64,000 nucleotides of DNA from Camelus ferus (lineage: Eukaryota). Under the pieces are notes generated by a model, which searched no databases, was not told the DNA's origin, and was given only the letters and a program-made list of their open reading frames with translations. Below are positions 15,835 to 16,590 of this stretch, in pieces. The stretch lies in NCBI RefSeq assembly GCF_009834535.1, contig NC_045696.1, positions 41,976,001 to 42,040,000 on the forward strand, read 5' to 3'. The translations under genes were made by a program, and so were the position numbers. Numbering within the stretch: position 1 is the stretch's first letter; every line of letters starts with the position of its first letter.

Positions 15835-16590
15835 TACTTGGACCATGAGACTGCTTCAGCCACATTCATCGACAGTAGTGGACACTTTGTTTCCTCCCAG
15901 CTGACAGGAGTTAGCCGGAATCCGTACTGCTGGCTATGAGCACCAGACTCTGTCCAGCCAGGAGCGCCTGGAGGAGGACTCCTTGCTGGCTGCCTTCCAG
16001 TGGCAGGTGCCTGACGTGGGCCCAGTCCCCTTTTTGAAGAGCACTGACCCTTCTTCCAGCTACTTCGTCATCTTGAACTCTGCAGCCCTCTTCAAGGTGG
16101 GAAGCCAGCTAGAGGTTCTGGTTCATGTACAGGATTTTCAAAGAAAGCCCAAGAAGTATGGTGGAGACTACCTGCAGGCCAGAATCCACTCTCCTAAGCT
16201 GCAGGCGGGGGCCGTGGGCAGAGTGGTAGACTACCAGAATGGGTTTTACAAGGTCTTTTTCACTCTGCTCTGGCCAGGCAAAGTTAAAGTGGCCATATCT
16301 CTGGTCCACCCCAGCGAAGGGATCAGAGTTCTTCAGCACCTACAGGAAGGGAAACCAGATAGGGTGTATTTCAAGAGTCTCTTCCGTTCAGGGAGAATTT
16401 CTGAGACTACTGAGTGCAACGTGTGTCTTCCTGGGGGTCTTCCCCTGTGCAACTTTACAGATCTCTACACTGGGGAGCCCTGGTTCTGCTTCAAACCAAA
16501 GAAGCTCCCGTGCAGTAGCAGAATTAACCATTTCAAAGGCGGATACCTGAAGGGCCTTCTAACGGCTGCAGAAACTGCTTTCTTCCAGAG
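15835..16590 (+). CDS. NXPE3: NXPE3 coding exon 2, with a +1 frameshift at ~15930-15931
   Basis: Acceptor tctttctcttcag|TAC. Reads [16 protein letters not shown]...RNPYC, then continues in the next frame as [28 protein letters not shown]...[13 protein letters not shown]...AFFQ. Donor AG|gtatgt at 16590/16591. Length 756 nt; 755 would keep the frame. Confidence 0.95.

Follow-up and report, generated by a model that had tools for sequence, protein, structure and literature searches.

The 64,000-nucleotide stretch of Camelus ferus DNA analyzed here (the window) carries the gene NXPE3, whose second coding exon is thrown out of frame by a single extra base. The question raised by this locus is whether that base belongs to the sequenced camel, in which case the gene would be broken, or to its assembly. 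An earlier note, made from the letters alone, had located one extra base at 15930 or 15931 in an otherwise intact NXPE3, and our analysis agreed, as removal of either base gave the Cys-Gly found in the camelid orthologues. The note had also offered two explanations, an artefact or a recent null allele. An artefact in which a C/T site was written twice turned out to be well supported, but the null allele found no support. Altogether, the extra base is very likely an assembly artefact, with the gene intact in the animal, because NXPE3 is unbroken in related camels and several other conserved genes of this assembly are interrupted by an extra base of the same kind.

The NXPE3 locus

The best sequence match of the interrupted gene was NXPE3, and the locus sits between CEP97 and NFKBIZ. 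A homologue search with the frame downstream of the break found NXPE3 homologues from mammals to amphibians. In the read-through of the exons (X at the break), residues 10-28 had a mean hydropathy of 2.95, indicating that the N-terminal hydrophobic anchor is present. The neurexophilin and PC-esterase domains are present as well, as seen in the matches of P0142, the NXPE3 protein of Camelus dromedarius (XP_031312294.1) and C. bactrianus (XP_045359784.1), to neurexophilin-1 (6pnp) and NXPE1 (9pja). Judged by its sequence, synteny, domains and catalytic residues, the gene in the window is the NXPE3 orthologue. The features of the locus, and the comparable sites found elsewhere in the assembly, are listed in Table 1.

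Table 1. Coding features of NXPE3 in the window and one-base insertions at other loci of the same assembly
Feature	Position	Strand	Remark
NXPE3 first coding exon	1985..2077	+	ATG; hydrophobic anchor, residues 10-28
Alternative first coding exon	15220..15249	+	Matches start of annotated camelid isoforms P0142/P0146
NXPE3 coding exon 2	15835..16590	+	756 nt as assembled, one base in excess
Adjacent C and T at third position of Cys63, then G	15930..15931	+	One of the two is the extra base
Premature TGA caused by the shift	15937..15939	+	From translation of the assembled exons
NXPE3 coding exon 3	20313..20386	+	Next in-frame ATG lies here (271-aa frame)
NXPE3 coding exon 4	27884..28090	+	GDST motif; Ser362 (NXPE1 Ser355 in the alignment), codon at 28045
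NXPE3 last coding exon	30616..31166	+	His537 (NXPE1 His529 in the alignment), codon at 31095; terminal TAG
CEP97 insertion sites	G000:C1:41950793-41950795, C1:41957152-41957153		Both non-duplicating
FAT4 large first exon	G000:C2:88783951-88783952		Adjacent C,T at Asn codon
Protocadherin insertion sites	G000:C3:98326604, 98326641, 98333857, 98346303, 98371084, 98372218, 98720281		

Human NXPE1 is described as a sialic acid O-acetyltransferase in a structure entry and a preprint (PDB 9pja; bioRxiv 10.64898/2026.05.20.726592), the latter proposing a Ser355/His529 dyad and giving NXPE1 as a paralogue with ~33% identity to NXPE3 in human. At the level of sequence, NXPE1 resembles camel NXPE3 in its N-terminal anchor, its neurexophilin and PC-esterase domains and the aligned dyad, to which Ser362 and His537 of the camel protein correspond (match E 2e-78). 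By homology with NXPE1, camel NXPE3 is predicted to be a Ser-His O-acetyltransferase.

The exon sum and canonical splice sites noted earlier were both reproduced, with coding exons of 93+756+74+207+551 = 1681 nt and four introns that are all GT-AG. A DNA search of the camel's own genome (G000) with exon 2 returned one match, the window itself; the exon is single-copy, and a second copy or haplotig was ruled out on this result. Other features of the window were observed along the way. The alternative first exon is common to the window and the camelid orthologues, and isoforms beginning there would be without the membrane anchor, while an in-frame acceptor at 15901, upstream of the break, fits an alpaca isoform. 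Intron 1 of NXPE3 contains a stop-free stretch of 160 aa (11320-11799), which we take to resemble the C-terminal end of LINE-1 ORF2. Downstream of NXPE3, at about 59700-64000, lie a CpG island and the first exons of NFKBIZ, of which those covered are unbroken.

Comparison with sister species, which the earlier note had suggested, showed that the annotated NXPE3 proteins of dromedary, Bactrian camel and alpaca (Vicugna pacos, XP_072822062.1, here P0146) are intact. The read-through equals P0142 at each residue from 32 to 559 and alpaca P0146 at each residue from 55 to 559, save the X at the break in both cases, which bears out the claim that the gene has no other lesion. The camelid orthologues read N-P-Y-C-G-Y-E in frame where the window is one base longer, and the lesion was not found in the dromedary, Bactrian or alpaca models; indels may be silently corrected in RefSeq models, but neither P0142 nor P0146 carries a low-quality label. 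Additionally, Cys63 was kept in 191/191 of the NXPE3-like proteins compared (>60% identity, covering the site). With one lesion and zero amino-acid changes relative to the camel orthologues, NXPE3 lacks the multiple lesions and relaxed constraint of a unitary pseudogene and fails to qualify as one.

Predicted effect of the extra base

As assembled, the NXPE3 product is a protein of 65 aa that ends in YCWL. The assembled 10-base form at the break is TACTGCTGGC, and either single-base removal gives a 9-base form. Although the 559-aa frame can be opened in 37 ways by taking out one base between 15902 and 15939, a scan of removals across the two codons at the break recovered Cys-Gly only when 15930 or 15931 was taken out, and the extra base at this position is a copy of neither neighbour. 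The premature stop ends at CDS base 198, and the exon junctions after it run from 849 (the next) to 1130 (the last). Nonsense-mediated decay (NMD) of the shifted mRNA is predicted because the stop is far upstream of three later junctions (50-55 nt rule, which is textbook knowledge), in line with the short product and probable NMD that had been proposed earlier for this gene.

Several routes by which a protein could still be made were considered, and those through another start were rejected. The next in-frame ATG is indeed in exon 3, as had been stated, at CDS 866, and would yield 271 aa only. Macaque and seal have 484-aa NXPE3 isoforms that begin at Met76, but camelids have Leu at this residue (window 15967-15969), which offers no start. 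Translation from the alternative first exon meets the break too and gives 44 aa as written. Programmed frameshifting or recoding was set aside, since the relatives are in frame. Separately, AG sites 3' of the break could restore a candidate frame (e.g., 16001, giving 504 aa). If it were real, an NXPE3 allele with the extra base would likely be null.

Insertions elsewhere in the assembly

The comparison was extended to 200 kb of sequence next to the window and to a further 400 kb that covers cadherin genes and GRAMD1C. The recurrence that marks a consensus indel was found there, as the checked genes held ten further sites with one extra base each in CEP97 (2), FAT4 (1) and clustered protocadherin exons of the PCDHA and PCDHG groups (7). 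The upstream neighbour CEP97 has two one-base insertions relative to deer and pangolin proteins, 35-41 kb upstream of the NXPE3 site, and these are likely the same artefact. At the FAT4 break, 15/15 orthologues (96-98% identical) read through, as LNIS.

Among the clustered protocadherins, 5/46 exons were broken by the seven sites, namely four alpha exons (6 sites) and one gamma exon; the 46 exons comprise 11 alpha, 12 beta (one partial), 20 gamma A/B and 3 C-type, cover part of the cluster, and were surveyed with low sensitivity in the case of the 3 C-type exons, a degraded relic near C3:98812462 being left out. The relic resembles a protocadherin (36% identical to a gamma exon) and is probably an old pseudogene. 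Three of the seven protocadherin insertions are hidden in long stop-free open frames. Over the roughly 110 kb of protocadherin exons covered, the seven sites correspond to an insertion rate of ~1 per 16 kb, from which FAT4, chosen since it looked broken, was kept out.

The breaks are clustered, with 4/11 exons in PCDHA, 0/12 in PCDHB and 1/20 in PCDHG, and with three sites in CEP97-NXPE3. No break was seen in a 423-aa frame (presumably TRMT10C), in a 294-aa exon (presumably ZBTB11), in those NFKBIZ exons to which a turtle protein aligned or in any beta exon, which argues against a uniform rate. We infer that such clustering fits heterozygous blocks. A frame switch, presumably due to one extra base, was also observed in a GRAMD1C exon (near G000:C1 51267050); like the NXPE3 break, it falls in an otherwise normal exon of the same genome.

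All eleven sites, NXPE3 included, are extra bases, with zero deletions (p = 0.0005 at even odds). Real human indels show deletions outnumbering insertions at ~2:1, and non-repetitive, non-duplicating insertions make up ~2.5% of them, according to the human figures taken from PMC3638132. Here, a non-duplicating insertion was the only reading at 6/11 sites and scored best at 2 more, and duplication fitted equally well at 3. An adjacent synonymous pair was present at 8/11 sites, compared with a chance level of 43% in the NXPE3 CDS, where 1640 of the 3812 possible non-duplicating one-base insertions adjoin a synonymous swap, 769 (20%) do so with a transition and 153 (4%) with a CpG-type transition. 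The look of two Cys codons, TGC and TGT, sharing one site, to which attention had been drawn before, is thus present in NXPE3, but at that chance level it says little by itself. The C,T pattern of NXPE3 is seen again in FAT4 (Asn/Asn) and at a PCDHA site that is followed by G (Arg/Arg); the first CEP97 site (Thr/Met) allows this reading too. A signature of alleles written in alphabetical order was compatible with 11/11 sites, yet, roughly estimated, the same would hold for most random sites, and it is not claimed.

Public sequencing runs

The stretch from 15700 to 16700 was queried, as 98 sampled words, against the Logan contigs of public sequencing runs, and 24 runs were among the matches listed. 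The whole stretch was found in 14 DNA runs (9 samples, 4 studies and 2 organism labels), all with 0.97 of the 98 words; these contigs drop rare and second alleles, and the source animal may be among the sampled runs. A word share of 1.00 was seen in none of the 24 runs listed. A single extra base is expected to cost 31 of 971 31-mers, which leaves a share of 0.968 and corresponds to a loss of about 3 of the 98 words. The observed shares therefore fit a base private to the assembly, with the reservation that the missing words are unplaced and that a SNP elsewhere in the kilobase gives the same 0.97. Six RNA runs held 0.70-0.80 of the words, which suggests that exon 2 is present in RNA because these shares about equal the exonic share of 0.72-0.75; runs with small word shares (X21, X22) were left out. 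A 24-base motif beside the site had 0 matches in metagenome contigs, a result that is uninformative either way.

Origin of the extra base

We consider it probable that the extra base is a consensus error in which a synonymous C/T site, heterozygous in the animal, had its two alleles written side by side. The sequenced animal would be heterozygous C/T at the third base of Cys63, where the G that follows would make one allele a CpG, and CpG is a frequent place for C/T polymorphism. Reads of both chromosomes would have been merged into one consensus, and the two alleles, kept in separate columns, would both have been written, adding one base; the product of the true gene would be the usual membrane-anchored NXPE3 of 559 aa. 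Both the heterozygosity and the merging are inferred steps. A precedent is found in an early FALCON version, which on merging haplotypes is reported to have introduced indels at bases that differ between them (PMC5632298). The merged-haplotype indels of long-read assemblies mentioned in PMC5632298 and PMC8081667 likewise affect single bases, at SNP-like sites of genes that are otherwise perfect. Unlike the present case, the accounts given there describe no pattern made up of insertions only with both alleles written, and the effect in PMC5632298 is given as 'data not shown'.

Other origins have to be weighed against this one. A plain insertion error of unpolished long reads, involving no SNP at a homozygous site and leaving the gene intact, is unlikely. 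Short indels of consensus calling are given in PMC8081667 as the commonest error of long-read assemblies and a cause of frameshifts, and the finding of insertions at 11/11 sites, three of which fit duplication of the adjoining base, is in keeping with this type of error. However, most sites lie outside runs, 8/11 carry a synonymous pair, several of these pairs are C,T, and the sites are grouped in blocks, which point away from plain error. These explanations all leave the gene intact, and that a camel carries a real null NXPE3 allele, a natural knockout, is highly improbable. In its heterozygous version, a rare and recent loss-of-function allele whose mRNA is destroyed by NMD, this idea is very improbable. 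A single lesion without drift is how a young allele is expected to look, a rare allele may be hidden in the contigs of the public runs, and local mis-templating is conceivable, as the extra base completes a CTG-CTG pair. Nevertheless, such a non-duplicating insertion belongs to a class of ~2.5% of real human indels (PMC3638132), and with ~1 such site per 16 kb, the chance that a CDS of 1.68 kb is hit by one is up to 10%. The same pattern is also seen in FAT4 and, twice, in CEP97, genes that are unlikely to be truly broken. Both are constrained, and it is implausible that a single animal would carry one true break in FAT4 and two in CEP97.

A loss of NXPE3 that is fixed in this camel lineage is the least credible reading, with hardly any probability left to it. 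It draws on the assembly sequence alone, in which the exon has a single copy, but the NXPE3 protein is intact and of identical sequence in dromedary, Bactrian camel and alpaca, no listed run has all words, no second lesion accompanies the first, and the six RNA runs suggest an exon that is present in RNA.

Implications

For the heterozygous site written twice, as for any artefact here, the main consequence is one of quality control. One-base insertions recur in this assembly (7 in ~110 kb of protocadherin exons and 3 in CEP97 and NXPE3), and therefore a 'gene loss' on this genome that is based on a single lesion should be presumed an assembly error until it is confirmed by reads. No title on NXPE3 loss was among the matches listed in searches of the NXPE3 literature, including NXPE3 together with camel. 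The biological weight of the break is small, as NXPE3 is likely intact. If the allele were true, it would be of use as a naturally occurring null for an enzyme that has been little studied, though not surprising by itself. Camel sialic acids are bound by respiratory viruses, and the knockout of a conserved candidate sialic-acid O-acetyltransferase, if true, could alter the sialic acids of the cell surface.
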